Shown: positions 9,012 to 33,500, counted from the first letter of the stretch. The stretch: DNA of 64,000 bases from Nitrosomonas sp. (GCA_008015565.1 SSFV01000009.1:2916-66915); one strand, 5' to 3'. Numbers and translations are program-made. Notes: a model not told the origin generated them from the sequence alone.

Positions 9012-10418
9012 TTAATTTTTTAATAATGTATCCAACCACTTTTTCCAGCATTGATATTTCTCAAGTAATCCAGTATTGGTTTTATTGATGATTATTTGTC
9101 GCACTTCCCGGTGGAACTTTATTTTTAATTCGCAAGCAAGCATTGCGGCGCCCTGCAAGCTCGTTTCTTTTTGCTGCAACTGAAAAACCGGGAAGGTTAC
9201 GCACTGAGCGATACCTTGTTGCAGGCAAGATAACTGGGACAATCCTCCGGATAGATAAGCTCGCGTCAACGGTGAGGCCGTGTGAAAGTCTTCCAGGATA
9301 CGCGCAACTCTGAATATAACCGCTTCGAGCATTAATGCGGTGATTTGTTGTGGGGATAAATGAGCGGTCGATTGAGAAAAATAGATGCCCCACTCGTTAC
9401 GAAAATACGGTGCGCCTAAGCCGCTGGGTTCAGCCAAGCAAAAAATATTGCTGGTGGCTAAATCTTCGCTACAGCAGTTTTGTACCGGATAGGGTGCGAG
9501 GGCAGCGGCGATTGAATTGAGTGTGCCTTCAATGGCAAATTGAATCGACTGATTTTTATTTTGATAAAGCAATGTTTGCAAGTAACCGTCCGATGATAAT
9601 TGCGCCGTTTTGACAGGGCGGATCACAAAGCCGCCGGTGCCGAGATTGACCAAAGCTTGCGTATGATTACCTGCGAGACTACCTATCAAGGCCGCGGATT
9701 GATCGCCAATGCTGGCTTGTAACGTCAACCCGATATCCAGCGCTAAATTCAATCCGGTAGAAGGTTTGATAGCGGGCAGAATGGTGACCGGGATATCGAA
9801 TAGCTGGCATAAAGTATCCGACCATTGCATTTTATGAATATCCATCAATAAAGTACGCGCGGCCATTGAAGCATCGGTGACGAAATGTTGGCCGTGTGTC
9901 CAGCGCCAAATCAGAAAAGTATCCAATGTGCCCGTCAGCCATTCGCGGCAAATGAGCTTATCCCGCCAAGTTGGATGGTCATGTAGCAGGATACTGAGTT
10001 TTGGAGCAAAATAATAAGGGGTCAGGCGTAGACCGGTTAGTTCGTGAATAATCCCTGTCTCAGCTTGTAAGCCATGGCAGCAGCTTGTGCCCCGGTCATC
10101 TTGCCAGGAAATCAGAGGGGTTACCGGTTTGCCGCTGGCTTTGTTCCAGATCAGGAAAGATGAACGTTGGCTGCACAATCCCAAAGGAGGCCTGCTGCTT
10201 GTTTTTGCAGTGCATTCTTCAATCACTTGTTCCGCTACTTCAATATATTGGCGCGCATTACTTTCATAGCGCCCTTGTTGGTTGTCGATGGCGGGTGCCG
10301 GCCGTGACACGATATGCTGCAGATTGCCTTCTTTGTCCATCAAAGCGGCTTTAATGGAGGTTGTACCCAGATCCAGTGCGATTGCCGAAATTATTGAATG
10401 GCCCATTGTTGTTGGCAT
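9012..10418 (-). CDS. FGGY-family carbohydrate kinase, glycerol kinase-like
   Basis: ALDLGTTSIKA, SWQDDRG, GTLDTFLIWRWT, TDASMAARTLL, GDQSAAL, GTGGF, GLGAPY. Downstream of glpD. Start may be 10406. Confidence 0.85.
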   Translation of the reverse strand: MPTTMGHSIISAIALDLGTTSIKAALMDKEGNLQHIVSRPAPAIDNQQGRYESNARQYIEVAEQVIEECTAKTSSRPPLGLCSQRSSFLIWNKASGKPVTPLISWQDDRGTSCCHGLQAETGIIHELTGLRLTPYYFAPKLSILLHDHPTWRDKLICREWLTGTLDTFLIWRWTHGQHFVTDASMAARTLLMDIHKMQWSDTLCQLFDIPVTILPAIKPSTGLNLALDIGLTLQASIGDQSAALIGSLAGNHTQALVNLGTGGFVIRPVKTAQLSSDGYLQTLLYQNKNQSIQFAIEGTLNSIAAALAPYPVQNCCSEDLATSNIFCLAEPSGLGAPYFRNEWGIYFSQSTAHLSPQQITALMLEAVIFRVARILEDFHTASPLTRAYLSGGLSQLSCLQQGIAQCVTFPVFQLQQKETSLQGAAMLACELKIKFHREVRQIIINKTNTGLLEKYQCWKKWLDTLLKN

Positions 10419-19449: not shown

Positions 19450-21827
19450 TATTTATTCAGACTAGCGAGATAGAGCCATGTTTCCATTACCGAGTCGGGA
19501 TTGAGCGATAAGCTGCTGATGCCTTGTTCGTAAAGCCAGGCCGCAAAATCCGGATAGTCCGAAGGCCCCTGTCCGCAAATTCCAATATATTTTCCTTGTT
19601 TGTGACAGGCGTCGATGGCCATTTTAAGCAACTTCTTGACAGCGGGATTACGCTCGTCGAATAGGTGTGCAACTAAAGCAGAGTCTCGATCGATACCAAG
19701 CGATAGTTGAGTCATATCATTGGAACCGATGGAGAAGCCATCAAAATACTGTAAAAATTCTTCAGCGAGTAAAGCATTACATGGGATCTCGCACATCATG
19801 ATTACACGTAAACCGTTTTTGCCACGCTCCAGCCCATACGATGCAAGCAGTGCTACGACTTGCTCGGCTTCTTCGATTGTTCGGCAGAATGGCAGCATAA
19901 TCTCAACATTGTTCAAGCCCATGTTATCGCGTACATTGTGCAGTGCTCTGCATTCAAGTTCAAAACAATCGCGGAAAGCAGTCGATAAGTAGCGCGATAC
20001 GCCGCGAAACCCGATCATTGGGTTTTCCTCATCGGGTTCATAACGGCTTCCACCGATCAAATTGGCGTATTCATTTGATTTGAAATCGGATGTCCGTACG
20101 ATTACAGGATTGGGATAGAATGCTGCCGCAAGCGTTGAGATGCCTTCGGTTAGCTTCTCGACGTAGAAACTGATTGGATCTTCATAACCTGCGATCCGTC
20201 TGCTGATCTGATTTTTTAAGTCATTGGGCAAGCTATTGAATTGCAGCAGTGCCATAGGGTGAATGCCAATCATATTGTTGATGATGAATTCCAGACGCGC
20301 AAGACCGATGCCATGATTAGGCGTGCCGGAAAACGAAAAAGCGTGCGACGGATTGCCGACATTCATCATGATTTTAATAGGTAAATCAGGGAGATTGCCG
20401 GTCTCGGCGGTAATATGTTCAAAAGGCAGCAAACCTTCATATATAAATCCGGTATCGCCTTCAGCGCAGGAAACTGTCACTTCTGAATTGTCTCTGATGA
20501 GCATGGTTGCATCGCCGCAACCGACAACGGCGGGAATACCCATTTCCCTTGCGATGATGGCGGCATGGCAAGTCCGTCCCCCGCGATTGGTAACAATCGC
20601 GGCGGCACGTTTCATAATAGGCTCCCAATCCGGATCGGTCATGTCGGTTACCAGCACATCGCCTGACTGAATTTTGTGCATTTGCTCAATACTCATGATT
20701 ATGCGCGCTGTTCCCCGGCCAATCTTATTTCCGATGGCACGCCCCTCAATTAATATTTTTCCTTTGTTATTGAGTTTGTAGCGCTCCATTACCGTTTTTG
20801 TACGGCTTTCCACAGTTTCCGGACGTGCTTGCACGATATAAAGTTGTCCATCCCGGCCATCCAGCGCCCATTCGATATCCATGGGACGGCCGTAATGTTG
20901 CTCAATGATGAGGGCTTGCTGTGCCAGCATCTCAACCTGCTCATTCGTCAAGGAAAAACGCATGCGCCGCTTAGTGTCGACATCACGTGTAATTGTGGAT
21001 CCGCTCATGTCTTTTTTGCTATCGGCGTAGATCATTTCGATAGCCTTAGTGCCTAACCGGCGCGACAAAATTGCATGTTTTCCCGCTCCCAATCCACGCT
21101 TATAAACATAGAATTCATCGGGGTTGACAATTCCTTGTACAATGGTTTCACCCAGGCCGTATGCAGAAGTTATGAAAATGGCATCGCGAAAACCCGATTC
21201 AGTATCCAGTGTAAACATGACGCCGCTGGCGCCAAGATCGCTGCGCACCATTTTCTGTATTCCTGCTGACAAATAGACTTTGTCGTGCGGAAATTTTTGA
21301 TGAACGCGATAAGCGATGGCGCGATCATTATAAAGCGAGGCAAAAACCACTTTGATTGCTGCAATGATCTGATCGATTCCGCGTACATTTAACAATGTTT
21401 CCTGCTGACCAGCAAATGAAGCATCTGCGAGATCCTCAGCGGTGGCTGAGGAACGCACTGCAAATGAAACTTCTTCAGATGTATGGTCATTGGCCACAAG
21501 CTGTTCATACGCATGCGCAATTGCATTTAAGATAACGTCCGGCAATGTAGCATTAAGAATCCATTCCCGTATAGTCTGGCCCGTTACAGTCAATGCATTG
21601 ATATCGTTGACATTCAGCTTATTTAATAATTGGTTGATGCGATCGGTCAGGCCGTTGCTGGCCAAGAAATCCCGGTATGCTTTTGTCGTGGTTGCAAAAC
21701 CCGTTGGTACTTTGACACCAGCTCTGGAAAGATGACTGATCATTTCTCCCAGCGAAGCGTTTTTCCCGCCAACAAGGTTGATATCATCCATAGTCAATTG
21801 ATCCAACCAGGCTATGTATTCAGTCAT
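19449..21827 (-). CDS. ppsA: Phosphoenolpyruvate synthase
   Basis: VGGKNASLGEM, AVRSSATAED...SFAGQQET, phospho-His GGRTCHAAIIARE, FSIGSNDMTQ, GICGQGPSD. RBS GCAGGAG before ATG 21827. Confidence 0.97.
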   Translation of the reverse strand: MTEYIAWLDQLTMDDINLVGGKNASLGEMISHLSRAGVKVPTGFATTTKAYRDFLASNGLTDRINQLLNKLNVNDINALTVTGQTIREWILNATLPDVILNAIAHAYEQLVANDHTSEEVSFAVRSSATAEDLADASFAGQQETLLNVRGIDQIIAAIKVVFASLYNDRAIAYRVHQKFPHDKVYLSAGIQKMVRSDLGASGVMFTLDTESGFRDAIFITSAYGLGETIVQGIVNPDEFYVYKRGLGAGKHAILSRRLGTKAIEMIYADSKKDMSGSTITRDVDTKRRMRFSLTNEQVEMLAQQALIIEQHYGRPMDIEWALDGRDGQLYIVQARPETVESRTKTVMERYKLNNKGKILIEGRAIGNKIGRGTARIIMSIEQMHKIQSGDVLVTDMTDPDWEPIMKRAAAIVTNRGGRTCHAAIIAREMGIPAVVGCGDATMLIRDNSEVTVSCAEGDTGFIYEGLLPFEHITAETGNLPDLPIKIMMNVGNPSHAFSFSGTPNHGIGLARLEFIINNMIGIHPMALLQFNSLPNDLKNQISRRIAGYEDPISFYVEKLTEGISTLAAAFYPNPVIVRTSDFKSNEYANLIGGSRYEPDEENPMIGFRGVSRYLSTAFRDCFELECRALHNVRDNMGLNNVEIMLPFCRTIEEAEQVVALLASYGLERGKNGLRVIMMCEIPCNALLAEEFLQYFDGFSIGSNDMTQLSLGIDRDSALVAHLFDERNPAVKKLLKMAIDACHKQGKYIGICGQGPSDYPDFAAWLYEQGISSLSLNPDSVMETWLYLASLNK

Positions 21828-22012
21828 CGAAAACTCCTGCAAACTTAAATTTTGTCTTATTATAGCGCCCGGTTATAAGAATTACTGATGAAGATTCGTA
21901 ATTTTAAACTCGAAAAAATGGTGACGCATAATCGGAAAAGCAAAGCCTGCGAGTTTGTGCCGGTTGCGACGAATTTCGCATTGCATACAAAGAATACATT
22001 TTGCTTGAGTTT

Positions 22013-23371
22013 TTAGAATGGCAAGATGAAATCCAAGGAAAATAAAATTTGATCCTTGTTGCCGTCAAATGGCCGGTAGGAGGCTGCTTTGTAGGCATCT
22101 ACCCTATCGTAACGGATATTCGGGCGAATATTGAGCTTCTTCAAATAATCCCACTTCAGTTTGAGTGTCTTGGCTATTTTCCAGTTCATGCCTAATGTCA
22201 GGGCATAATAATCTGCCGGCGTAATGGTGACACTGCTAAGATTGCCTGCATAGCTCACAGCTGAGCCATTAACGTCCTGAGTTGCCGCAGCTATCCGGAA
22301 AGGGGAGGGGTTACGGAAACCATCTTCATCGCGATACCATTCGCCGCGAATACCAACTGACAGATTCTCCGTTAGATCATAGTACAAATGAGCTATGGCA
22401 CTGAACCACTCGGCATCCTTAATGGTATTCGTATATTTTAAATTATTCAGCAAAACGCCGCCGGCATGGCCATATACTTGATGCAAAACAAGAAGCATTT
22501 TTGAAGTGATTCGATGTTTCAATACTATGTTATAGAATCCCCAAGGCTCATTACTTCGTGCTGAGGTGTTACCGTAAGTGCCAGAAATGTGGAAAGATGT
22601 CGCGCGATTGTCACTGGTCCAGGTGAAACCGGCGAGCGCATTCCAGTTTTCAAGTTGTTTATCCCATCCTGCATCCCACCCACCTGTGGCGCTGCCGGTT
22701 ATAGGGCCTGCCAACAGCATCCAATTTTTATTAACAGTATAGTTGGCGAGTAATCCTGTATGCGTAAAGGGCTCCCCGACGTTTAAGGTATAAGCGCGGG
22801 TGTAAAAGAAATTATCAGGTGCTGGTACGGTTTCAAAGCCGGTGGGGGTATAGAAGTGCCCTGCCTTGATATTGAGACCACCTCCTAAAGGTAAATACGT
22901 TTCCAGATAAGCTTGTGGCAGCGCAATGCCGTAGGTTTTCGAAGAAGCGCAACATAAATCGAGATCCCAGTTGCTTCTTTTTAAAGGCTCTCCGGAATTG
23001 ACATCATAAGCTGGAACGCCAAATGCCTGCGTAAATATCGAGTCTGTTCCAAACATAAAATCGAAACGCCCCCCAAGGTCCCACTTTCTGCCTTCCGAAG
23101 CAACCGGGCGCCGCATAAACAGATTTAATTGATTCAATTGAAACTGGTTGGCTTGATCAGCAAAGATGACTGGACCATTAAATCCGCTAGTCTGGCTAGG
23201 GTTGAAAGTTGCTCCTCCGTGAATCCAGCCGCCGAAATCTAATTTGCTAGTATGAAGAAATTTTCTAAAATTGTTGGCATACGAGTCATCGGACGGTATT
23301 GCTATAAAAATCAGAATGCTGCCAGTGATGGCCGATAACAGCCATCCTATGAATTTTAAAATGTAGTGCAT
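22013..23371 (-). CDS. Outer-membrane beta-barrel porin, BBP2/OmpL-like family (copy A)
   Basis: Signal peptide; QLNQLNLF, RFDFMFGTD, LPQAYLE, IKAGHFYTPTGFE...DNFFYTRAY...EPFTHTG; NIRPNIRYD; C-terminal Phe. Confidence 0.8.
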   Translation of the reverse strand: MHYILKFIGWLLSAITGSILIFIAIPSDDSYANNFRKFLHTSKLDFGGWIHGGATFNPSQTSGFNGPVIFADQANQFQLNQLNLFMRRPVASEGRKWDLGGRFDFMFGTDSIFTQAFGVPAYDVNSGEPLKRSNWDLDLCCASSKTYGIALPQAYLETYLPLGGGLNIKAGHFYTPTGFETVPAPDNFFYTRAYTLNVGEPFTHTGLLANYTVNKNWMLLAGPITGSATGGWDAGWDKQLENWNALAGFTWTSDNRATSFHISGTYGNTSARSNEPWGFYNIVLKHRITSKMLLVLHQVYGHAGGVLLNNLKYTNTIKDAEWFSAIAHLYYDLTENLSVGIRGEWYRDEDGFRNPSPFRIAAATQDVNGSAVSYAGNLSSVTITPADYYALTLGMNWKIAKTLKLKWDYLKKLNIRPNIRYDRVDAYKAASYRPFDGNKDQILFSLDFILPF

Positions 23372-23693
23372 TAAGAGGTTTAGAATGATTGGGAAAGAAA
23401 AATATAATCGCTGGCCTGCACGGGATTTGAGCGTGTGAGGTACTTCATTTTAATGATAGAGTGATTTAGTAAGAAAAATATGTGAATGCAATTATAAACA
23501 CTTTAACGAATAATTCCAATTATCGCTTTTTAATCAAGGCACAACGCAAAAAAATTAACTTTAATTCCAGCTTAAGCGTACTAATCCATATTGCAAGATT
23601 AATAGCATTAACATTCAGTATTTTTCATTTCTTCAATGAAAATTTGCACTTACCATAAATGGCTTAGATATCTTAATCTTACCTGCAAAATGG

Positions 23694-23738
23694 TTAATGG
23701 TTTCTATTAGTGAAAAACAATGGTTTCCCCAATGTACG
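23694..23738 (+). promoter_or_regulatory. Conserved 45-bp upstream element, copy 1
   Basis: TTAATGGTTTCTATTAGTGAAAAACAATGGTTTCCCCAATGTACG; 35/45 ungapped identity (hand count) to the reverse complement of 26476-26520; ends 60 bp before ATG 23798. Confidence 0.75.
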
Positions 23739-23797
23739 GATGATGTTGATCAAATTAAGATGGCACCATTCGATGAAATGTTTGGAGGATATTCATC

Positions 23798-24217
23798 ATG
23801 AGAACACTAAAATTATTAATTTCGCTGTTTGCGCTGACTATGTTGGTTGCTTGCGCTCAAATGAATTCATCGTTAGTTGCGCCAACCGGAATTGCTAATA
23901 ATGATCATAGAGCATTGATAAAGCATTATGAAGGCTTAGCTAGGGAAGCAAAAATTAAATTAGAGGAAAATAAAGCGATACTTGAAGCTTATGAAGCACG
24001 GCCATATTACTATGGCAGGCAAGGTTTGGATTTGCAATCGCACGCTTCAGCCAATATTCGTGAGCATACAAGAACTTTGAAACAAAGTCTTGAGTTTGCA
24101 AATCTACATCGAAGATTAGCTATGGAGCAACAAAAGAAATTAAATCAAACGGCTGATGCTAATGATCGTAATCTAACCGTCGAAAACTCGGAGTATTTTG
24201 ATAACAAAGGGCTTTAG
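23798..24217 (+). CDS. Uncharacterised helical lipoprotein (paralog 1 of a DH...YYYGRQG...SH...LH family)
   Basis: Lipobox LVAC; RBS GGAGG; clear paralogy to 26033-26419 and 26737-27117. Confidence 0.85.
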   Translation: MRTLKLLISLFALTMLVACAQMNSSLVAPTGIANNDHRALIKHYEGLAREAKIKLEENKAILEAYEARPYYYGRQGLDLQSHASANIREHTRTLKQSLEFANLHRRLAMEQQKKLNQTADANDRNLTVENSEYFDNKGL

Positions 24218-24236
24218 TGATAAGGCAGCAGGTACA

Positions 24237-24269
24237 CTGGCATTCACTGATTTTTTCAGTGAATGCCAG
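24237..24269. terminator. Bidirectional terminator between lipoprotein and porin B
   Basis: Perfect 14-bp stem CTGGCATTCACTGA-TTTTT-TCAGTGAATGCCAG between convergent genes. Confidence 0.7.
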
Positions 24270-24287
24270 ATGTATGTCAGTTTTTCA

Positions 24288-25637
24288 TTAAAAGGGCAAT
24301 ATAAAATCCAAGGAAAATAAAATTTGATCCTTATTGCCGGCGAATGGTCTATATGCAGCCGCTTGATAAGCATCTACTCTGTCATAACGTATATTGGGTC
24401 GAATGGTTAGTTTCTTGAGCGAGTCCCATTGGAGCTTTAAAGTTTTTGCCGCTTTCCAATTTAAACCAACAGTCGCTGCGTAATAATCTGCCGGAGTAAT
24501 CGTAACGCTACTAAGATTGCCTGCGTAACTGACCGGTACCCCGTTAACGACATTTGTGGCTGCTGCGATTCGGAATGGTGATGGATTGCGAAAGCCATCT
24601 CTATCTCGAAACCATTCTCCGCGCACACCTACTGATACATTTTGCGTAAGATCGTAATATAAATGTGTGACGAAGCCCATCCATTCGGCATCTTTGATAA
24701 CATTGGTGTATTTCAGATTATTCAATAAAACACCATCAGCAAAACCGTGTACATGGTGTAAAACTAACAGGGTTTTCGGATTAAATTTATGTTGAAACAC
24801 AATGTTATACATTGCCCATATCCCACTGTTCCGGGTTGAGATTTCCCCATAGGTGCCGGTAACGTTGAGCGAGGTTGCATGATTGTCGCTGGTCCAAGTG
24901 ATACCGCCAACACCGCCCCAATTACCTAGCTGCCTGTCCCATCCACCATCCCAGCCGCCGGTAGCGCTTCCTGTGACGGCACTCCCGGATACTGACCAGT
25001 TCTTGTTAATCACGTAATTTGCCTGTAAGCCGGTGTGCGTGAATGGCTCGCCTGCATTAAATGAATAAGCGCGTGTGTAGAAAAAGTTATCCGGTGCCGG
25101 AATTGTTTCAAAACCTGTGGGAGAATAAAAATGTCCGATTTTGATATTTAATCCGTTCTTTCCAACCGGAACGTGAGCTTCTAAGAAAGCTTGTGGTAAT
25201 GCAATGCCATAAGTGCGAGAGGATGAGCAGCATATATTAAGATCCCAATTGTTTCTATTCAGTACCTCGCCTGAATTTACATCAAAAGTTGGTACACCAA
25301 ACGCTTGTGTAAAAATGGCATCTGTTCCAAACAAAAAATCAAAACGTCCACCAAAATCCCATTTATTAGTTTCTGAAATAACCGGGCGTTGCAGGAATAA
25401 ATTAAGTTGATTTAACTGGAAACGATTGGCCTGATCGGCGAAAGCAACTGGTCCATTAAAGCCATTGGTTTGGCTCGGGTTAAAAGTTGCGCCACCGTGA
25501 ATCCAGCCACCGAATTCTAATCTGCTGTCTTTCGCAAAATTTTTTAGAGTATTAGCATGAAGTGTGCCGGAAGCTCCGGCAAAGAAAAGAAGTGAATAGA
25601 AAATTGTTCCAAATAACAGCCATTTCGAGGAATTCAT
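24288..25637 (-). CDS. Outer-membrane beta-barrel porin, BBP2/OmpL-like family (copy B)
   Basis: Long identical stretches with copy A (GGWIHGGATFNPSQT, GFRNPSPFRIAAAT, NKDQILFSLDFILPF); signal peptide ending TLHA. Confidence 0.8.
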   Translation of the reverse strand: MNSSKWLLFGTIFYSLLFFAGASGTLHANTLKNFAKDSRLEFGGWIHGGATFNPSQTNGFNGPVAFADQANRFQLNQLNLFLQRPVISETNKWDFGGRFDFLFGTDAIFTQAFGVPTFDVNSGEVLNRNNWDLNICCSSSRTYGIALPQAFLEAHVPVGKNGLNIKIGHFYSPTGFETIPAPDNFFYTRAYSFNAGEPFTHTGLQANYVINKNWSVSGSAVTGSATGGWDGGWDRQLGNWGGVGGITWTSDNHATSLNVTGTYGEISTRNSGIWAMYNIVFQHKFNPKTLLVLHHVHGFADGVLLNNLKYTNVIKDAEWMGFVTHLYYDLTQNVSVGVRGEWFRDRDGFRNPSPFRIAAATNVVNGVPVSYAGNLSSVTITPADYYAATVGLNWKAAKTLKLQWDSLKKLTIRPNIRYDRVDAYQAAAYRPFAGNKDQILFSLDFILPF

Positions 25638-25981
25638 TTATCAATGACAAGTAAAAAATGTGTTGAGTATTTATAAATCAAATGCCAATATAAACTGTCG
25701 CGTTATGTGTAAATCATAGTCTACCAAGTAATTGTGCGATGTCATCGCTTTAATTTTTGTTGCATTAAGACATTATCTTTTTTGTACAACTTGTTCATAT
25801 CCATTATTTTCTTTTTATTAGTTCGTACGGTACAACATCTTATTTGGTTTTGAAATGCATTTCATTTTAATGAATAGCAGAACAAATATCATTGTTCCAG
25901 CAGAAATGGAAAGAATGTAATGAGATAGGTGGTGAAATAATAGTAAATCGGAAATTATTTTCTACCTTCGGAAATAAAAAA

Positions 25982-26007
25982 ACAACCACAGGCAAGCCTG
26001 TGGTTGT
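25982..26007 (-). terminator. Rho-independent terminator of paralog 2
   Basis: ACAACCACAGG-CAAG-CCTGTGGTTGT 11-bp stem followed by a T tract on the - strand. Confidence 0.85.
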
Positions 26008-26032
26008 CCGCTTACTACCCTTAAGCGTTTTC

Positions 26033-26419
26033 TTATTGTACTGTCATAGAATTATCCGTAGTAAGTTTGGCTTTATTAATGACATCGCCATTTTGTTGTT
26101 CCATCGCAATGCGCTGATGTAAATTAGCGTTACTTAAACTTTCAGCCAGCAATTTTTCATATTCACGGATATTTGCAGTTGTGTGCGATTTAACATCTTG
26201 GCCCTGACGTCCATAGTAATAGCTATGGTTCTCATATTCTTCTAATACTGCTTTATTTTCTTGTAATTTGGATTTTGCTTCTTTGGCCAGAACTTCGTAG
26301 TGTTTTGCTAAAGCGGCATGATCGTTATCATCAATCCCGTCAACTTCTACTGCAAATGCTGAAGAAACAATTAGACTTAGTGCGAAAGCTAAAGCTACTA
26401 GAATTGCTGATTTTTTCAT
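26033..26419 (-). CDS. Uncharacterised periplasmic helical protein (paralog 2)
   Basis: Sec signal ending SAFA; NDHAALAKHYE...YYYGRQG...SHTTANIRE...LH. Confidence 0.88.
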   Translation of the reverse strand: MKKSAILVALAFALSLIVSSAFAVEVDGIDDNDHAALAKHYEVLAKEAKSKLQENKAVLEEYENHSYYYGRQGQDVKSHTTANIREYEKLLAESLSNANLHQRIAMEQQNGDVINKAKLTTDNSMTVQ

Positions 26420-26475
26420 GATTACTTTCTCCGGGTAATAAATTATGTTGACATATTAATTCGCTCAGCATCTTT

Positions 26476-26520
26476 AGTATATTGGGGAAACCCTGGTTTT
26501 CTTCTAAGGGAAACCATTAG
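26476..26520 (-). promoter_or_regulatory. Conserved 45-bp upstream element, copy 2
   Basis: + strand AGTATATTGGGGAAACCCTGGTTTTCTTCTAAGGGAAACCATTAG, 57 bp from ATG 26419; ends in TATACT on the coding strand. Confidence 0.8.
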
Positions 26521-26690
26521 ATGCTAAGTGCTTGGTTTAGATGCGTGAAAAAGATGTTTTCGAAGTTCGAGAATTTAATGATTGATGATAATTCTTGCTT
26601 TGCATTGAATGCAAAAATGGAGAGAAGCAGGCGTTTTAATTTGCTGGAAATAGCATAATCAGGGGTTTGATGTTAAGTCCAAATAAAAAA

Positions 26691-26716
26691 ACAACCACAG
26701 GCAATCCTGTGGTTGT
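26691..26716 (-). terminator. Rho-independent terminator of paralog 3
   Basis: ACAACCACAGG-CAAT-CCTGTGGTTGT plus T tract; same stem as at 25982. Confidence 0.85.
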
Positions 26717-26736
26717 TCGCATACTACCTTCAAGGG

Positions 26737-27117
26737 TTATCTTATTTCCGTGGAATCATCGAAATTTAACTTAGCTTTACTGATTACACTGTTGTTTTGT
26801 TGTTCCAATGCGATTCGATGATGCAAGTCAGCGTTGCTTAAGCTTTCAGCTAACTGTTTTTCGTATTCGCGAATATTTGCAGTTGTATGGGATTTAAGAT
26901 CCTGACCTTGGCGTCCATAATAGTAACTATGATTCTCATATTCTTCCAAAACTGCTTTATTTTCTTGTAACTTGACTTCCGCTTCTTTGGCAAGTAGCTC
27001 ATAGTATTTTGCTAAAGCGGCGTGATCGTTATCATCAATTCCATCCACTGCAAACGCTGAAGTTACTGTCAAGCTCAGTGCTAAGAAGAGAGCTACTAAT
27101 AGTGTTGGTGTTTTCAT
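26737..27117 (-). CDS. Uncharacterised periplasmic helical protein (paralog 3)
   Basis: Sec signal ending SAFA; mature part nearly identical to paralog 2. Confidence 0.88.
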   Translation of the reverse strand: MKTPTLLVALFLALSLTVTSAFAVDGIDDNDHAALAKYYELLAKEAEVKLQENKAVLEEYENHSYYYGRQGQDLKSHTTANIREYEKQLAESLSNADLHHRIALEQQNNSVISKAKLNFDDSTEIR

Positions 27118-27173
27118 GGCAATTTCCTCAAGTGATGAATGAATGGTGCCATAATAATTATGTCAACCTGCTA

Positions 27174-27218
27174 AGTATATTGGGGAAACCCTGGTTTTTT
27201 TATAAGGGAATCCATTAG
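27174..27218 (-). promoter_or_regulatory. Conserved 45-bp upstream element, copy 3
   Basis: + strand AGTATATTGGGGAAACCCTGGTTTTTTTATAAGGGAATCCATTAG; 42/45 identical to copy 2; also 57 bp from its ATG (27117). Confidence 0.8.
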
Positions 27219-27386
27219 TTGATGACGCTTAGCACTTGAAGTTGAATGGGAACCTTGTCTTGAATGTGTGATTATAGTGTCTGCAGGTTGTTAGATAATC
27301 GACGCAATGAAAAACCGGAGTAATCGATATGACAGATGCAATAATCCATAATTGAGCGATCAACTTTATTGCCGGTATCGTCGGAT

Positions 27387-28211
27387 TTATTTCCTGCGCG
27401 ATTTGTGCTCAGTATGATTTCGTGGTTTATTGCTTTTGCGGCCGGACCACATGAGTACAATTATTCCTGCCAAAATCATTGGAATGGACAACCATTGTCC
27501 CATGGTTATTCCTAAAGTCAGTATACCCATAAAGCCTTCTTCAGGTTCCCGGTAAAATTCCGCAATTGAACGTAAAATTCCGTAACTAATCATGAATATG
27601 CCGGTAATTGCACCGGTTGCCCGTGGTTTGGCTGAATACACCCAAAGAATGGTGAATAACACTATACCTTCGAGTACTGCCTGATAGAGTTGAGAAGGGT
27701 GACGAGGGAGTTCGTCGACATATGGAAAAACCATACCCCAAGGCACGTCGGTAGAGCGCCCCCATAATTCCGCATTAATAAAGTTGCCAATACGGCCCGC
27801 ACCTAATCCAGGTGGAATGAGCGGGGAAATGAAATCAGTAACAGTAAGCCATGATATGCGGTATTTACGCGCGAGCAGAACCATTGCGATAAAAACACCA
27901 AGGAATCCGCCATGAAATGACATGCCACCTTCCCAGATTGCAAATATTTTCAGTGGATGCTCCAGATAATATCCAAATTGATAAAATAAGACATGGCCAA
28001 GGCGTCCACCTATTATTACGCCAAACATGCCATAAAACAGAGCATCATCAAGCATTTCATGGGTAAATCCCGATTGTGGATAGTGCTTGATACGATAGCG
28101 TCCGAGCAAAATGAACGCTATAAAACCGAGCAAGTACATCAATCCATACCAGTGAATGGAAAGTGGCCCTACGGATATGGCAACGGGATCAATTTGCGGA
28201 TGGACGAGCAT
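27387..28211 (-). CDS. lgt: Prolipoprotein diacylglyceryl transferase
   Basis: [49 protein letters not shown]. Confidence 0.97.
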
Positions 28212-28311
28212 AGTTTATGGCCTTATTTACGGTAAAATGGTTGCCATTATACCAAGTGCGACAATGCACGCCGGGATATAAGCCGAATTTTTATTTCACT
28301 CAGGAGTCAGC

Positions 28312-29985
28312 ATGCCAGACAATAAACGCAGTCAAGCCATTACCCAGGGAGCGCAGCGTACGCCAAACCGAGCTATGTTACGTGCGGTTGGGTTTAGTGA
28401 TGGGGATTTTAACAAGCCAATTGTTGGCGTAGCCAATGGCTATTCAACCATTACGCCATGCAATAAGGGATTGAATGATTTGTCATTAAAAGCGGAATCA
28501 GCATTGAGGCAAGCTGGTGCCATGCCCCAAATGTTCGGCACTATCACGGTCTCGGATGGCATTTCAATGGGTACGGAAGGTATGAAGTATTCTCTGGTTT
28601 CGCGCGAGGTCATTGCCGATTCGATTGAAACTTGTGTTCAGGCGGAAAGCATGGATGGTGTGATAGCGATTGGCGGCTGCGACAAAAATATGCCCGGTGC
28701 AATGATTGCGATTGCGCGTATGAATGTACCTGCAATTTTTGTCTACGGTGGTACGATCAAACCCGGACACTACAAGGGTCAGGATTTGACCATAGTGAGT
28801 GCATTTGAAGCAGTGGGGCAGTACAGCGCTCATAAAATCGACAGTGAAGAATTGTTGCAAGTTGAGCGCCATGCATGCCCAGGTGCCGGTTCCTGTGGTG
28901 GTATGTTTACCGCGAATACGATGTCATCGGCTTTTGAAGCGATGGGAATGAGTTTGCCCTATTCTTCAACGATGTCTGCCGAAGATGATGAAAAATTGCT
29001 GAGTGCGGGACAATCCGCCGAAGTGTTGGTGGATGCCATCAGAAAACAAATTTTGCCACGCGACATCATTACGCGTAAATCAATTGAGAACGCCATAGCC
29101 GTGATCATGGCGGTTGGCGGTTCGACCAATGCAGTACTGCATTTTCTGGCGATTGCACATGCAGCAGACGTCGAATTGACGATAGATGACTTTGAGCATA
29201 TTCGCGGAAAAGTACCGGTATTGTGCGATCTGAAACCATCCGGACGCTATGTTACAGCCGATCTGCATCGTGCGGGCGGTATTCCGCAGGTGATGAAAAT
29301 GTTGCTGAATCATGGTTTGTTGCACGGTGACTGTATCACCATCAGCGGATTAACTATCGCTGAGATTTTAAAAAATATTCCCGATTCACCGCGTCCCGGC
29401 CAAAGTGTGATTCGTTCATGGGATCAGCCGATGTATAAGCAGGGTCATTTGGCAATTTTAAAAGGTAATCTGTCTCCCGAAGGTAGTGTGGCAAAAATTT
29501 CCGGTATCAAAAATCCGAAAATTACCGGTCCTGCACGCGTTTTTGAATCGGAAGAATCCTGTATGGCCGCAATCTTAGAGCGCAAAATTCAAGCGGGTGA
29601 TGTGGTGGTTATACGTTACGAAGGTCCGAAAGGGGGTCCGGGTATGCGCGAAATGCTTTCGCCAACTTCTGCGTTAATTGGCGAAGGTTTGGGGGATTCC
29701 GTCGGATTGATAACGGATGGCCGTTTTTCCGGAGGCACTTATGGCATGGTGGTAGGACATGTTGCGCCGGAAGCCTATGCGGGCGGAACAATTGCACTGG
29801 TGCAAGAGGGTGACTCGATTACTATTGATGCGGAACAGCGGTTATTGCAATTGAATGTGCCGGATGATGTCCTGTCTCAGCGCCGCGCAGCGTGGCAACC
29901 GCCGCAGCCGCGTTATAAGCGTGGCGTACTGGCCAAATACGCGAAATTGGTATCCAGTGCGAGTAGAGGCGCGATCACGGACTAA
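28312..29985 (+). CDS. ilvD: Dihydroxy-acid dehydratase
   Basis: [67 protein letters not shown]. Confidence 0.97.
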
Positions 29986-29999
29986 TCTTAGCTTTTCTT

Positions 30000-32096
30000 A
30001 TGGATTCTGAAATGGCCAATCATCTTAGCAGTGAAACCAGCCCATATTTGTTACAGCATTGCGGCAATCCGGTGGATTGGTATCCCTGGGGTGAGCAGGC
30101 GCTTAATTTGGCTCGTACGCAAAATAAACCGATTTTGCTGTCGATCGGTTATTCCGCTTGCCACTGGTGCCACGTTATGGCACATGAATCGTTCGAGAAT
30201 GTTGAAGTGGCTGCCGTGATGAACAAGCATTTCATCAACATCAAAGTGGATCGGGAAGAACGTCCGGACATTGATCAGATTTATCAAACCGCGCATTACA
30301 TTATGAATCATCGTAATGGCGGCTGGCCGCTGACGATGTTTTTGACACCGGAGCAGAAACCTTATTTCGGCGGAACATATTTTCCGCTGCAGCCGCGTTA
30401 TGGTTTGCCTGGTTTTTTGGAATTGTTGCCTCGGGTTGCCGAGGCCTATTACACGCGCAGCGAAGATATTGAGAAACAAGGCAAGGTATTGTTGAAGTTA
30501 ATGAATCAAACGCTGCCTGATAGTAAAAGCTCATCACACGAGCAATTCTCAGCAGCGTTATTAACACAAGCGATCAAGCATCTGGAAGAACAATTTGATC
30601 CGGTTTATGGTGGTTTTGGGGGGGCTCCAAAATTCCTTCATCCCGCCGAGTTGGCTTTTTGCTTGCACCAGTATTTTAAGACTCAAAACACTCAGGCCTT
30701 GCAGATGGTGGTTTTTACCTTGGAAAAGATGGCCAAAGGCGGTATCTACGATCATTTGGGCGGCGGATTCTATCGTTATAGTACCGACGCTTATTGGCGT
30801 ATTCCGCATTTTGAAAAAATGCTGTATGACAATGGCCCATTGCTGCAACTGTTTACTATTTCATGGTTAGCTTCGGACAATCCGCTATTCAAACGAATTG
30901 TCGAGGATACCGCGCAATGGGTGATGCGTGAAATGCAGTCCGGTTCGCCGAATGAAGGTGGTTATTATTCAACACTGGATGCCGATTCAGAACACGAGGA
31001 AGGCAAATATTATGTGTGGGATCGCGATGAGGTTACGCAAATTTTAACTGCGGAGGAGTTTGCACTGATTGCGCCTTATTACGGATTATCTCAGGCACCT
31101 AATTTTGAACAGAAATTATGGAACCTGGAAATTACAACTGATCTTGCAGAAATTGCACAACGTCTTGGTATGACGTTGGATCATGCGCAGAAAACCTTAT
31201 TGTCTGCACACACCAAGTTGCAAGCAATCCGTGCGTGTCGTGTTCGTCCGGGGCGCGATGAGAAAATTCTGGTCAGTTGGAATGGCTTGATGATCAAGGG
31301 AATGGCGCATGCCGGGCGTACATTCGGTCAAGCGGCATGGATCCAATCGGCGCAACGTTCAGCCGATTTTATTCGTACAGTGCTATGGAAAAATAACCGT
31401 TTGCTGGCAACATATAAAGATGGGAAAGCGCATTTAAATGCCTATCTTGACGATTACGTATTTTTGTTAGATGGGTTACTAGAGTTAATGCAAACTGAGT
31501 TTCGTGAAGTTGATCTGGAATTTGCTATTATGTTAGCGGAAGTTGTGTTGGATCAATTCGAAGATCGAGAAGATGGCGGTTTCTATTTTACCAGCCACGA
31601 TCATGAGCAACTGATTCATCGTCCCAAACCTGTTTATGACAATGCTATAGCATCTGGAAATGGTATGGCGGCAATGGTATTGCAGCGCTTAGGTCTTATT
31701 TTGAGTGAACCTCGTTATCTTCAGGCGGCCGAACGGACGATCCGTTTGTTTTATCCCATGATGTCGACACAATTGAGCGGTTATTGCAGTTTACTGACTG
31801 CAATGGATGAAACGTTGTTTCCTCCGGTAATGATTATTCTACGAGGTCATTCCGATGAATTGAAAATATGGCAACATACAATACAACGACAATTTCCGCA
31901 TATGCTTGTCTTGGCACTTTCGCAGGAACTATTTAATTTGCCGCCCAGTCTTAGCAAAGCCGTTTCTACAGTGGCTGCAGTTTGTTCTGTAAGTGCTTGG
32001 GTATGTACGGTGGCTGGTTGTATGCCGGAAATAACAAATTTGCAGGATTTGCTGCAGATATGTAAAGTTCAAGGTAGAATAAGTAACCTTTTATAA
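30000..32096 (+). CDS. Thioredoxin-domain protein YyaL/DUF255 (SSP411-like)
   Basis: [79 protein letters not shown]. Confidence 0.93.
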
Positions 32097-32117
32097 TTTT
32101 AATAAGGAAAAAAATTT

Positions 32118-32438
32118 ATGAGAAAAGTACTAATAGGAGCATTTGCAGCATCAGCCATTTTATTAGCCGGTGGTGCACAAGCAAGCGCAGAACTTGCGAA
32201 AAATAGTGGTTGCCTGAACTGCCACAATGTAGATACCAAATTAGTAGGGCCAGCCCTGAAAGATATCGCTGCTAAATATGCCGATCAGGCTGATGCTTCT
32301 GATTATCTGACTGACAAAATCATTAAAGGAAGTAATGGTGTTTGGGGTCAGGTGCCAATGCCACCAAAAGGCGGCAGTGCGACTTTAACGGATGCTGATG
32401 CTAAAGTATTGGCAGACTTTATTCTGACACTGAAGTAA
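32118..32438 (+). CDS. Class I monohaem cytochrome c552/c551
   Basis: Signal peptide; CLNCH haem site; TKLVGPALKDIAAKYA and GVWGQVPMPP (axial Met). Closely resembles the N. europaea cytochrome c552 sequence as I recall it. Confidence 0.92.
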   Translation: MRKVLIGAFAASAILLAGGAQASAELAKNSGCLNCHNVDTKLVGPALKDIAAKYADQADASDYLTDKIIKGSNGVWGQVPMPPKGGSATLTDADAKVLADFILTLK

Positions 32439-32454
32439 TTCGCAATCATTGCAG

Positions 32455-32486
32455 AAAAGCCGACGTCTAATAACGTCGGCTTTTTT
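32455..32486 (+). terminator. Rho-independent terminator after cytochrome c
   Basis: AAAAGCCGACGT-CTAATA-ACGTCGGCTTTTTT. Confidence 0.88.
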
Positions 32487-32535
32487 ATTGACGTAATGTT
32501 TTGGCAATGACGACTTATGGTTTACCGGAGAAAGA

Positions 32536-32952
32536 ATGAAAACACGTATCACTTGGAAAGGAAATGTCAGTTTTTTAGCTGAATCCGGCAGCGGCCACTC
32601 GGTTCTGATGGATGGCGCGCCGGAAGCAGGCGGACAAAACCTCGGGCCGCGTCCGATGGAAATGATGTTGATAGGGCTAGGAGGCTGCACCAGTTTTGAT
32701 GTCGTGCATATTCTTAAAAAAGGCCGTCAGGATATTCAAGATTGCGTGGTTGAAATCGAAGCCGAGCGTGCGCCGGTGGATCCGAAAGTTTTTACCCATA
32801 TTCATCTGCACTTCATCATCACCGGAAATAACTTGAGTGCACAGCAAGTTGAACGTGCAATAAATCTTTCGTCAGAAAAATATTGCTCCGCATCAATCAT
32901 GCTTAAAAATACCGTTAAGATCACTCACGATTTTGAAATCGTTAACTTATAG
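32536..32952 (+). CDS. OsmC family protein (YhfA-like)
   Basis: GPRPMEMMLIGLGGCTSFDVV, KVFTHIHLHF, LSSEKYCSAS. Confidence 0.92.
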   Translation: MKTRITWKGNVSFLAESGSGHSVLMDGAPEAGGQNLGPRPMEMMLIGLGGCTSFDVVHILKKGRQDIQDCVVEIEAERAPVDPKVFTHIHLHFIITGNNLSAQQVERAINLSSEKYCSASIMLKNTVKITHDFEIVNL

Positions 32953-33500
32953 ATTTAAGAAAAATTCCAGAATATTTATTACATCAAGTAAATTTGTTGA
33001 CGGCAAAAGAAAAAATGAAAGATAAGTGCAAGTAGTAAATGTAATAAAATGTGTGTGCAACAATTGGATCAGCTTGCTGCCTATAAAACGCTGAACCTAT
33101 CAGTGATTTTTCAGTACCATGCCGTATGGTCATATTTCCTGCGCATCTGTTTATCAATTTCAGTATTGCTGTAGTGCATGTTCTGTTAGCTTTAAACGCT
33201 ACATCCGGTATCTTTTAGCCTTGGCCGGTTGATTGTGCGTCATATGGCATTTTTATTTAGCAAGTTAAGTGATCAAAAGATAACGGTAGACAACACAACT
33301 CAGAAAATTGGGCTTATTGGAGAATTCTGCATAATCAGTTTTTTGGTTAATTTATGATTTCTAAGTTATTGATCTTGTAAATATCACAAAAATTGAATAA
33401 TGCTAAAAAACAGAGCGATGCAGGAAAATTTATTATGAAAGTCAGCTACCGGTAATCGAGCCGGTCTTCCAGGAACGTTATATTTTTATCATGATGTCAG

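Follow-up and report, generated by a model that had tools for sequence, protein, structure and literature searches.

The closest described relatives in kind are the Spy, CpxP, ZraP and CnrX proteins, which are small exported helical hairpins that oligomerise and are strongly induced by envelope- or metal-responsive regulators; in ZraP and CnrX, His residues coordinate Zn, Ni or Co. The proteins considered here, P1, P2 and P3, belong to one family and are encoded beside two porins in the 64-kb stretch of Nitrosomonas DNA that was analysed (the window). The family is similar to the Spy group in size, location, fold class, high expression of an inducible type and in having metal systems in its neighbourhood, and P1–P3 have export signals and a predicted hairpin fold. 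However, the LTXXQ motif is absent from their sequences, and the Pfam models of the group (PF07813, PF13801) match neither P1–P3 at E ≤ 1 nor any of 86 family members at E ≤ 0.01. No Spy, CpxP, ZraP or CnrX protein is found among the PDB sequence matches at E ≤ 10 or among the top 50 Foldseek matches (none at E ≤ 0.001) of the hairpin model, which retrieves generic hairpins only, none of them at E ≤ 0.001. We know of no conserved adjacency to BBP2 porins in the Spy group.

SmbP of the ammonia oxidiser N. europaea resembles P1–P3 in being small, periplasmic and helical, and UniRef gives the name 'Small metal-binding protein' to one family member from N. ureae. However, SmbP is very rich in His, whereas P1–P3 have five His each in a two-helix hairpin. 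The PDB entry of SmbP is 3U8V, a four-helix protein (PMC12955753), and the SmbP label was rejected because this entry is absent from phmmer and family-profile searches of the PDB at E ≤ 10. Distant members of the family hold the same operon positions as CusF and CzcI, just upstream of an outer-membrane factor or beside CusF. CusF is a beta-barrel, whereas the model of the P1–P3 family is all-helical; PF11604 (CusF_Ec) does not match P1–P3, and CusF is a separate gene beside one distant member (P0294). The CzcI model NF045614 of NCBIfam (cut-off 100 bits) matches none of eight family members at E ≤ 1.

Two further assignments come from database labels. DUF4398 proteins (PF14346) are also small helical lipoproteins of unknown function, and UniRef labels three N. 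ureae members 'DUF4398 domain-containing'. This assignment was rejected: at a cut-off of 27.9 bits, P1–P3 give no match at E ≤ 1 and the labelled N. ureae members none at E ≤ 10; in this genome the model finds C84 only (54.7 bits), the five family members being missed at E ≤ 10, and hhalign relates DUF4398 to the family with a probability of 2.7%. The Skp/OmpH model PF03938 (cut-off 32.4 bits) does not match P1–P3, and the best relative, P0300, reaches 10.3 bits (E 0.85). As the preliminary description had supposed, the family is uncharacterised in Pfam, NCBIfam and the PDB, where searches gave no match; it is undescribed.

Nitrification in soils and wastewater plants is the work of ammonia oxidisers, which have a heavy demand for copper and iron; to our knowledge, little is established about metal passage through their envelope and metal handling within it. 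Genes of the family rank with the most strongly transcribed ones in a common activated-sludge Nitrosomonas. The family reaches up to 24 copies per genome in Nitrosomonadaceae, is rare elsewhere and is without annotation in the libraries tested. A conserved porin partnership, a sharp promoter element and an evolutionary tie to Cus/Czc accessory genes offer handles for experiment.

Gene organization and linkage to porins

All five open reading frames were found as they had been described, in the same order and on the same strands (table 1). P3 is a recent tandem duplicate of P2, promoter and terminator included. The order porin A (−), lipoprotein (+), porin B (−), small gene (−) is found again in many Nitrosomonas species, the same module being present in N. 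ureae Nm10, and because of this recurrence the arrangement cannot be ascribed to chance. An Rfam scan of positions 21800–33200 gave no RNA families.

Table 1. Features of the porin and small-protein locus, with positions counted in the window.
Feature	Position	Strand	Description
Porin A	22013..23371	-	452 aa, BBP2 family, 'upstream, divergent' orthologous group
P1 bipartite promoter element	23694..23739	+	TTAATGGTTTCTATTAG-N-AATGGTTTCCCCAATGTAC; weight-matrix score 60.7
P1	23798..24217	+	139 aa lipoprotein, lipobox LVAC, Ala at +2, helical-hairpin family
Porin B	24288..25637	-	449 aa, BBP2 family, 'downstream, convergent' orthologous group
P2 intrinsic terminator	25980..26009	-	13-bp stem, T tract
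P2	26033..26419	-	128 aa, Sec-exported (AFA/V cleavage), helical-hairpin protein
P2 bipartite promoter element	26475..26520	-	weight-matrix score 67.7
P3 intrinsic terminator	26689..26718	-	near-copy of P2 terminator, part of tandem duplication
P3	26737..27117	-	126 aa, Sec-exported paralog
P3 bipartite promoter element	27173..27218	-	weight-matrix score 67.1

The identification of both porins as BBP2 is borne out by full-length matches to PF07642 (model 1–339 covered) well above the gathering score of 26.2 bits, with E 1e-84 and 285.1 bits for porin A and E 8e-83 and 278.9 bits for porin B. The two are 72% identical. In the tree, porin A falls with porins that lie upstream and divergent of the lipoprotein gene in N. 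ureae, N. supralitoralis, Nm84, Nm166 and MAGs, and the A-type and B-type porins form two separate orthologous groups, each keeping its own position; therefore, the module is old.

Linkage between the family and BBP2 porins is conserved: in the loci of 55 species, BBP2 genes make up 35 of the 106 nearest neighbours, and within the genus linkage is seen in 11 of 16 genomes. In these 16 genomes 18 of 84 family members and 18 of 46 porins are linked, and the other 66 members (78%) have no porin nearby. The porin-linked subfamily is restricted to the low-ammonium N. ureae/oligotropha-type lineage, N. ureae Nm10 has one family copy at the lgt locus without a porin, and some complete Nitrosomonas genomes lack the family.

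Sequence and predicted fold of the small proteins

The three small proteins are paralogs; P2 and P3 are 77–79% identical to each other and either is 50–54% identical to P1. The motifs NDH, YE, YYYGRQG, SH, ANIRE and LH are indeed invariant among the three, and the lipobox of P1 and the AFA signal-peptidase sites of P2 and P3 are confirmed. The size of about 110 residues given for the mature proteins is a fair one, since they measure approximately 103, 105 and 121 aa. The all-helical character proposed for them is reproduced by an AlphaFold model of two long helices (mean pLDDT 87), which in P2 span residues 34–64 and 70–126 and form a confident two-helix hairpin.

Across the family the signature reads DH..LA..YE ... 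YYYGRQGQD..SH..ANIREYE ... LH. Three His residues had been regarded as invariant; this is upheld family-wide for H34, kept in 80 of 86 diverse members (93%), and for H101, kept in 82 of 86 (95%), but not for H79, which is kept in only 74% of the 86. According to the heptad phasing derived from the sequence, H34 and H101 occupy core positions about 33 residues on each side of the turn. Judged by the register of the hairpin, these two residues should meet, with H79 elsewhere. Efflux-linked members carry a His-Cys dyad at positions 79–80, the Cys of which has been lost in the porin-linked subfamily.

Metal-efflux context of distant members

Five independent contexts were found in which a distant member adjoins CusF, an RND pump of the CusB/CusA type or a CzcC-like factor. 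In this genome the paralog on C43, for which an exact-sequence look-up gave no record, lies between a 123-aa ORF that is weakly CzcI-like (18 bits against NF045614) and an OEP efflux factor. P0294, 72% identical to that paralog, is followed, about 50 bp downstream, by a CusF gene in the same direction, and the pair lies within an ars/mer/P-type ATPase/CzcB island. Six genomes from other families were positive, and in three of them a member abuts OEP-CusB-CDF-CusA, CusB(HMBD)-CusA or CusB(YtkA)-CusA. Since distant relatives reside in heavy-metal efflux operons, P1–P3 are candidates for periplasmic metal handling. The metal-context paralogs are 33–45% identical to the proteins of the locus, and the link to metal is one of association, made through the neighbours of distant members, which lends it indirect support.

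Promoter element and expression

An upstream DNA element common to P1–P3 had been noted, and it was recovered: the window contains three copies of GGTTTCCCCAATRTAC, where 0.05 would be expected, and the bipartite form is found in the 2.6-Mb genome at the P1, P2 and P3 sites only, with no occurrence of a control pattern. The element consists of the direct repeats GGTTTCC and GTTTCCCCAAT, 22 bp apart (GGTTTCC-N15-GTTTCCCCAAT), and the −35 region of the promoters is weak; a weak −35 with conserved repeats just upstream fits what is expected of an activator-dependent promoter. The element marks the promoters of the small-protein family genus-wide, with 51 matches in 25 of 61 genomes (control pattern 0), and 25 of the 28 sites that were fetched lie 55–67 nt upstream of the ATG of a family member. 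The other conserved target is a P-II-like gene, which has the element upstream in at least three genomes; it stands alone, and its product is atypical, with a C-x4-C tail. Of the five motif sites in this genome, none lies ahead of a gene recognisable as metal-related. The P1 element sits in the intergenic region common to P1 and the divergent porin A, and the sequence conserved upstream of A-type porins is the reverse complement of the element; upstream of B-type porin genes the conserved element is absent.

Two known types of promoter were considered and rejected. A sigma-54 promoter was suggested by TGGCAC in P1 and P3, but the GG-N10-GC spacing is not kept and P2 lacks TGGCAC. As to the Pho regulon, pstS-like promoters are without the element, and that of the C67 gene contains a canonical Pho box (TTGTCAC-N4-TTGTAAC), whereas the promoters of P1–P3 have GGTTTCC repeats 22 bp apart and no Pho box (CTGTCAT-type repeats, 11 bp apart). 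A Pho regulon had been suggested by the phoR-phoB pair that adjoins the locus in N. ureae and other species; this adjacency is synteny at the lgt locus.

Evidence for transcription comes from the contigs of six sludge metatranscriptome assemblies (X25, X27–X30 and X35). Contigs over P2 have depths of 23–102 (X27, X29, X30 and X35) and end at 26000–26037; the longest extends to 26436, and the P2 element is therefore upstream of the transcript. P3 contigs, which extend to 27133, have depths of 9–43 (3.5 in X25), and those of P1 (23713–24230 and 23794–24203) depths of 5–17. For comparison, fragments of neighbouring genes have depths of 2–5 and the cytochrome c gene at 32118–32438 has 25–53; RNA levels of P1–P3 match those of cytochrome c-552 in these sludge metatranscriptomes. 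Two raw-read metatranscriptomes, X45 and X46, were used for transcript ends and only 10 reads mapped. P1–P3 are separate, terminated monocistronic units.

In the same six assemblies the contig depth over the gene bodies of porins A and B is zero, and only the last 200 nt or so at the 3′ end of porin B (24241–24494), beside the P1 stop, are covered, at low depth. The co-regulation proposed for the whole locus stands for the three small genes and is not supported for the porins, whose bodies show no RNA where that of P1–P3 is abundant and whose B-type genes lack the element. A third porin, on C10, bears the motif; it was rejected as a co-expressed member of the regulon, since it has no RNA contigs.

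Functional interpretation

What could these proteins do beside the porins? We tentatively favour, at a probability of about 0.45, that P1–P3 are abundant periplasmic metal-binding or metal-stress proteins beside dedicated porins. P1 would be lipid-anchored to the outer membrane and P2 and P3 free in the periplasm, each as an antiparallel hairpin of about 100 residues that probably pairs into a dimeric four-helix bundle. They may act as metal-binding or buffering proteins or as metal-stress chaperones of the Spy/ZraP kind, with H34 and H101, at the same height of the two helices, as the predicted metal ligands. Handling of metal ions such as Cu or Zn would take place at the inner face of the outer membrane, with the two porins as possible ways in or out for the ions and possibly in contact with the small proteins. 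Each small gene, with a transcription unit, terminator and activator-type promoter of its own, would respond to a putative activator; its RNA reaches or exceeds the level of cytochrome c-552.

In the history that we propose, the scattered members outside Nitrosomonadaceae and one paralog of this genome serve as accessories to Cus/Czc-type heavy-metal efflux systems or to CusF. Within Nitrosomonadaceae the family would have expanded to its present copy numbers of as many as 24 per genome. In the N. ureae/oligotropha-type lineage one branch would have become fixed next to two BBP2 porins that arose by an ancient duplication, giving the order A(−), lipoprotein(+), B(−), soluble copy(−), and at the present locus the soluble copy would later have been duplicated in tandem to give P2 and P3. 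If the metal role is true, BBP2 porins gain a function and a new class of periplasmic metal-handling proteins is added; if it is false, an abundant envelope family of a key environmental guild is still in need of one.

Several observations weigh against a metal role. Five His per protein are far fewer than in SmbP-type binders, the Cys of the dyad has been lost, and the two-helix hairpin is a generic fold. The efflux context belongs to distant paralogs, and function may have shifted after the expansion; no recognisable metal gene follows the five motif sites, the other target being the P-II-like gene. A stoichiometric machine of channel plus binder is further opposed by the porin bodies (A, B and C10), which are undetected where P1–P3 RNA is abundant. 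A more ambitious form of the metal reading is doubtful, namely that the module is a new outer-membrane route by which oligotrophic Nitrosomonas acquire or buffer metal, most plausibly copper for AMO, with two specialised BBP2 channels, anchored and soluble His-pair binders derived from efflux accessory proteins, and one activator at GGTTTCC-N15-GTTTCCCCAAT that also controls the P-II-like protein.

The hairpin fold, the periplasmic location, the very high expression from activator-type promoters and the multiple independent copies per genome would also suit general envelope-stress chaperones, abundant Spy/CpxP-like ATP-independent holdases that an envelope-stress regulator induces and in which the His are structural or pH-sensing, and some sources label relatives 'Skp family chaperone'. 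The metal-efflux association would then follow from the damage that metals cause to periplasmic proteins. We regard this as a less probable explanation, because P1–P3 have no LTXXQ, Metal_resist or OmpH match in Pfam at E ≤ 1, the best OmpH match being the marginal one of P0300 (E 0.85), and because it accounts neither for the pairing with two particular porin orthologs nor for the His-Cys dyad of efflux-linked members. The small proteins could instead be plugs, gates, tethers or dedicated assembly factors on the periplasmic face of porins A and B, with P1 holding the complex at the outer membrane: the synteny is seen in one species after another, its two porin orthogroups are stable, no other neighbour is nearly as frequent as BBP2, and P1 has its element in a region that it shares with porin A. 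However, 78% of the members in the genus are away from any porin, as is the lgt-locus copy of Nm10, the partners outside Nitrosomonadaceae are efflux pumps and not porins, and the small genes have at least ten times as much RNA as the porins, which is unlike a 1:1 partner. Such an accessory role is unlikely.

The confinement of the porin-linked subfamily to a low-ammonium lineage and the element ahead of the P-II-like gene suggest a nitrogen or substrate supply module, in which the porins would let in ammonium or urea when these are scarce, and the small proteins would share with the P-II-like protein a regulon for nutrient limitation. We know of no means by which a helical hairpin bearing His and Tyr could bind ammonium or urea. 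A precedent on the porin side is a BBP2 porin of Kuenenia that is strongly induced under ammonium limitation (PMC7438415). This explanation is nevertheless improbable: the P-II-like protein is atypical and alone, the canonical Pho box at pstS indicates that the adjacent PhoBR pair is not the regulator, and the metal-efflux context of distant members is left unexplained. Small, helical, partly lipidated products of extremely abundant transcripts could also be Lpp-like coiled coils that space or tether the outer membrane, the porin adjacency being inherited synteny with no common function. This is very improbable, since two of the three copies are not lipidated, the C-terminal Lys of Lpp is absent, a spacer would not usually have highly conserved polar and His residues or a conserved Tyr-rich turn, and some complete Nitrosomonas genomes lack the family, which is thus not essential architecture.

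Three abundant uncharacterised N. ureae proteins reported by Zorz et al. 2018 (ATY38_06535, ATY38_01080 and ATY38_10635) were considered as members of the family, an identification that was set aside when the one testable case failed. The Nm10 family copy at 2,129 kb is not ATY38_10635, because the TonB receptor that flanks ATY38_10635 is missing there; it is flanked instead by FG-GAP-like proteins and a transporter of the bile-acid/Na+ symporter type.

Conservation of the module

P1, P2 and P3 represent a real, conserved and unannotated protein family that is highly expressed, has its own defined promoter element and is conserved in its partnership with porins; its function we infer. The five-gene layout proposed in the preliminary description was confirmed in coordinates and strands, as was the assignment of porins A and B to BBP2 (table). 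The porins, which share 72% identity, are ordinary BBP2 members, and we know of no established function for that family. P1-P3 do form one family, P2 and P3 being 77-79% identical and P1 50-54% identical to them, with NDH, YE, YYYGRQG, SH, ANIRE and LH all invariant in the three; the export signals claimed for them, a lipobox in P1 and Sec signals in P2 and P3, are present in the sequences.

Table. Genes of the module in the window
Gene	Position	Strand	Features
Porin A	22013-23371	-	full-length BBP2, PF07642, E 1e-84
P1	23798-24217	+	lipobox LVAC, Ala at +2
Porin B	24288-25637	-	full-length BBP2, PF07642, E 8e-83
P2	26033-26419	-	signal-peptidase site AFA|V
P3	26737-27117	-	signal-peptidase site AFA|V

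Among 16 genomes of the same genus, 18 of 84 family members have a BBP2 gene, and 18 of 46 BBP2 genes a family member, no more than 3 kb away, against a chance expectation of about 0.03 pairs per genome. The close subfamily, defined by the patterns YYYGR and ANIREY and searched in species-representative genomes, comprises 55 loci, whose nearest non-family neighbours are BBP2 (35 of 106), LGT (12) and PhoR (7), the latter two counts reflecting synteny. Linkage of homologs to BBP2 porins is thus seen in 11 of the 16 genomes and among these neighbours, but 78% of the genus members are located away from porins. At the same lgt locus, the small gene stands without any porin in N. ureae Nm10, and a further species combines two small genes with a single porin.

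In the maximum-likelihood tree the porins form two orthologous groups: the A type, which in every case lies upstream of the lipoprotein gene and diverges from it (support 96/98), and the B type, which lies downstream and converges on it. Both occur in N. ureae, N. supralitoralis, Nm84, Nm166 and several MAGs, and the unlinked porins of the window's own genome (on contigs C10 and C88) fall outside both. The order in N. ureae Nm10, 451(-) F(+) 458(-) F(-), is that of the window. The arrangement A(-)/lipoprotein(+)/B(-)/small(-) thus represents a conserved module of old standing, in which P3 is a recent tandem copy of P2, promoter and terminator included.

Small-protein family

No Pfam or NCBIfam model matched P1-P3 or 86 diverse family members, neither phmmer nor the family profile matched a PDB sequence, and a literature search found no paper on the family or the module, in agreement with the earlier view that the family is uncharacterised. 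An exhaustive search of 1.8 billion cluster representatives gave 183 matching clusters (E <= 1e-3), 86 of which were aligned; residues follow P2 numbering. Only H34, G70, A98 and H101 are nearly invariant, and a lipobox is present in about 44% of the members. The claim of three invariant His residues thus holds for H34 (80/86) and H101 (82/86) but not for H79 (64/86). The all-helical character is supported by a confident AlphaFold2 model from this alignment (mean pLDDT 87, >95 over residues 31-110), in which long helices 34-64 and 70-126, with the YYYG turn between them, form an antiparallel hairpin; Foldseek against the PDB returned generic hairpins only, none at E <= 0.001. In this register H34 would lie opposite approximately residue 100, and since the hydrophobic periodicity of the helices sets both His residues at core positions, H34 and H101 most likely come together towards the hairpin's open end, with H79 predicted near the turn, facing N55.

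In UniRef, three N. ureae members are labelled 'DUF4398 domain-containing' and a fourth is called 'Small metal-binding protein'. Neither label stood up to testing: the SmbP structure 3U8V, a four-helix protein (PMC12955753), was not retrieved from the PDB at E <= 10 by phmmer or the family profile; the labelled N. ureae proteins have no DUF4398 match at E <= 10; that model, run over the window's genome, matches a different gene (on C84) and none of the five family members; and hhalign gives 2.7% probability. Membership by sequence failed equally for Skp, CzcI and CusF, and the latter two identities were rejected.

The five members of the own genome are P1-P3, a copy beside dsbB on C137 and a lipoprotein on C43. 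Within the GTDB family, 43 of 61 genomes have a member; copy number per genome is 1-12 in the window's genus and reaches 24 in a second genus, and a fourth genus lacks the family altogether. Of the close-subfamily loci, 52 come from records titled Nitrosomonas, which without exception are of N. ureae/oligotropha type (N. ureae, N. supralitoralis, Nm84, Nm166 and JL21 among them), and three belong to an unclassified Nitrosomonadaceae, a Nitrosospira and a Methylococcaceae MAG. The last, the sole 'methanotroph' locus (L134, UBA7658), has the gene order of two Nitrosomonas contigs (L130, L131), and the one neighbour protein compared is near-identical (branch lengths 0-0.003); the contig is therefore probably mis-binned. 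In N. ureae Nm10, near-identical copies at 2,129 kb (L170) and 1,360 kb (L173) have large FG-GAP/integrin-like repeat proteins as neighbours, suggestive of a recent segmental duplication.

Promoter element and expression

The shared upstream element of P1-P3 was borne out: GGTTTCCCCAATRTAC occurs three times in the window (0.05 expected) and is the proximal half of bipartite TAATGGTTTCCYTTAG-N-AAAACMAnnGTTTCCCCAAT, with repeats 22 bp apart, a form found in the whole 2.6-Mb genome only upstream of these genes. The element extends across the genus: its exact pattern, identically spaced throughout, has 51 matches distributed over 25 of 61 genomes, and a control pattern has none. Among 28 sites fetched, 25 are placed 55-67 nt before the ATG of a family gene, whether of lipoprotein or Sec type; of the remaining three, one is in front of a truncated member and two are in front of a P-II-like gene. 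The element lies upstream of the P2 and P3 RNA contig ends, from which we infer the transcript starts and the -10 assignment, and on its downstream side come a conserved TTGA and a box resembling TAAGAT/TAATAT; whichever plausible spacing is taken, the -35 region is poor, as in activator-dependent promoters.

A weight-matrix scan of the own genome added two weaker sites. The one on C76 (66307-66352) precedes a stand-alone P-II-like gene (C76:65844-66146, -; 100-104 aa, PF00543, E 4e-11 to 7e-14, conserved C-terminal C-x4-C), followed by an ORF-free gap of ~940 bp and cysD/cysNC; this gene is preceded by the element in at least three genomes (own, L053, L054), with a leader of ~160-300 nt. The other, degenerate (C10:2816-2861), belongs to a third BBP2 porin (C10:2924-4249, +), 62 nt before its ATG, and the promoter has the TTGCAATTAAGAT box and the downstream boxes of P1-P3; the 652-aa ORF upstream resembles, on inspection by eye, a GAF/GGDEF-type signalling protein.

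Six sludge or reactor metatranscriptome assemblies (X25, X27-X30, X35) were searched, with contig depths from X27, X29, X30 and X35. P2 and P3, each ending at a strong intrinsic-type hairpin terminator (the two nearly identical), appear as discrete contigs that start at the terminator and extend past the ATG by ~16-17 nt, to 26436 and 27133 respectively; full-length coverage of P1 is seen in X27 and X35 (23713-24230, 23794-24203) and partial coverage in X30. Depths are 23-102 for P2, 9-43 for P3 and 5-17 for P1, scattered fragments of the neighbouring genes ppsA, ilvD and lgt have 2-5, and a c-type cytochrome used as yardstick (32118-32438, +) has 25-53 in four metatranscriptomes. The latter (106 aa, CLNCH, OsmC-like ORF next) is c-552-like; cytochrome c-552 ranks among the top ten proteins of N. 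europaea (PMC5960693). A 353-nt X25 contig of depth 683 (placed at 23797-23819; 5' leader GAGGGTACTTAG, then ATGAGAACACTAAAA) matches the small gene of an L039-type Nitrosomonas, and the homolog of this co-resident species is expressed even more strongly than P1-P3.

Co-regulation of porins and small genes, as implied earlier, was not supported. The porin A and B gene bodies have depth 0 in all six assemblies, the C10 porin was likewise not detected in RNA contigs where P1-P3 are abundant, upstream regions of B-type porins hold no conserved element, and upstream conservation of A-type porins is the P1 element in the shared intergenic region, nothing more. In RNA the porins fall short of P1-P3 by an order of magnitude or more, contigs being unable to prove absence. 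Only the last ~200 nt of porin B, beside the P1 stop, are covered, at low depth; contigs at 24212-24494 extend ~170-280 nt beyond that stop into the convergent 3' end and, being strandless, may represent P1 read-through antisense to porin B. Ten raw reads were sense on P1-P3, except one at the porin A 3' end.

Possible function

Family members were found in five independent metal-efflux neighbourhoods. The C43 paralog (C43:1271-2290, L005) lies between a His/Cys-rich 123-aa ORF, weakly matching NCBIfam CzcI (18 bits, E 0.0035), and an OEP efflux factor whose gene runs off the contig. Its relative P0294 (72% identical) is ~50 bp upstream of a co-directional CusF gene, in an island that also contains ars and mer genes, MerR regulators, a CzcB/CusB gene and a P-type ATPase for heavy metals. 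Class-wide, 6 of 200 genomes from other families carry a member, which in three abuts OEP-CusB-CDF-CusA, CusB(HMBD)-CusA or CusB(YtkA)-CusA. Efflux-linked members retain DH and H(R), and in them a His-Cys dyad replaces the SH(T/A) of P1-P3. Most parsimoniously, the family began as a periplasmic accessory of Cus/Czc-type systems, expanded in Nitrosomonadaceae and had one of its branches recruited to a place next to the porin pair. The C43 paralog itself is a lipoprotein with Met-Cys for His-Cys at positions 79-80, and a CHASE2-domain gene is its other flank.

We tentatively regard P1-P3 as candidate abundant periplasmic metal-binding or buffering proteins, or metal-stress chaperones, beside two dedicated porins (probability about 0.45). 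The H34/H101 pair in a dimeric bundle would be the working site, close to the porins on the inner face of the outer membrane, P1 presumably being the anchored form and P2/P3 the soluble ones. In working, the proteins most resemble the small periplasmic helical proteins Spy, CpxP, ZraP and CnrX, and like SmbP they are abundant, small and periplasmic in an ammonia oxidiser, but they fail every sequence-membership test for these. A general Spy-like chaperone is a rival, though an unlikely one. Somewhat less likely still is a porin plug, gate or assembly factor, and a structural Lpp-like role is very improbable.

Membership in a nitrogen-supply regulon is consistent with the element before the P-II-like gene and with the response of a Kuenenia BBP2 porin to ammonium limitation (PMC7438415); we consider it improbable. 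The Pho regulon was tested because phoR-phoB adjoins the locus in several species, and was rejected: a pstS-like gene has a canonical Pho box, and no pstS-like gene has the GGTTTCC element. This canonical-looking box on C67, TTGTCAC-N4-TTGTAAC, lies ~80 nt upstream of a pstS-like ORF starting at 10219, one of four PBP_like_2 genes.
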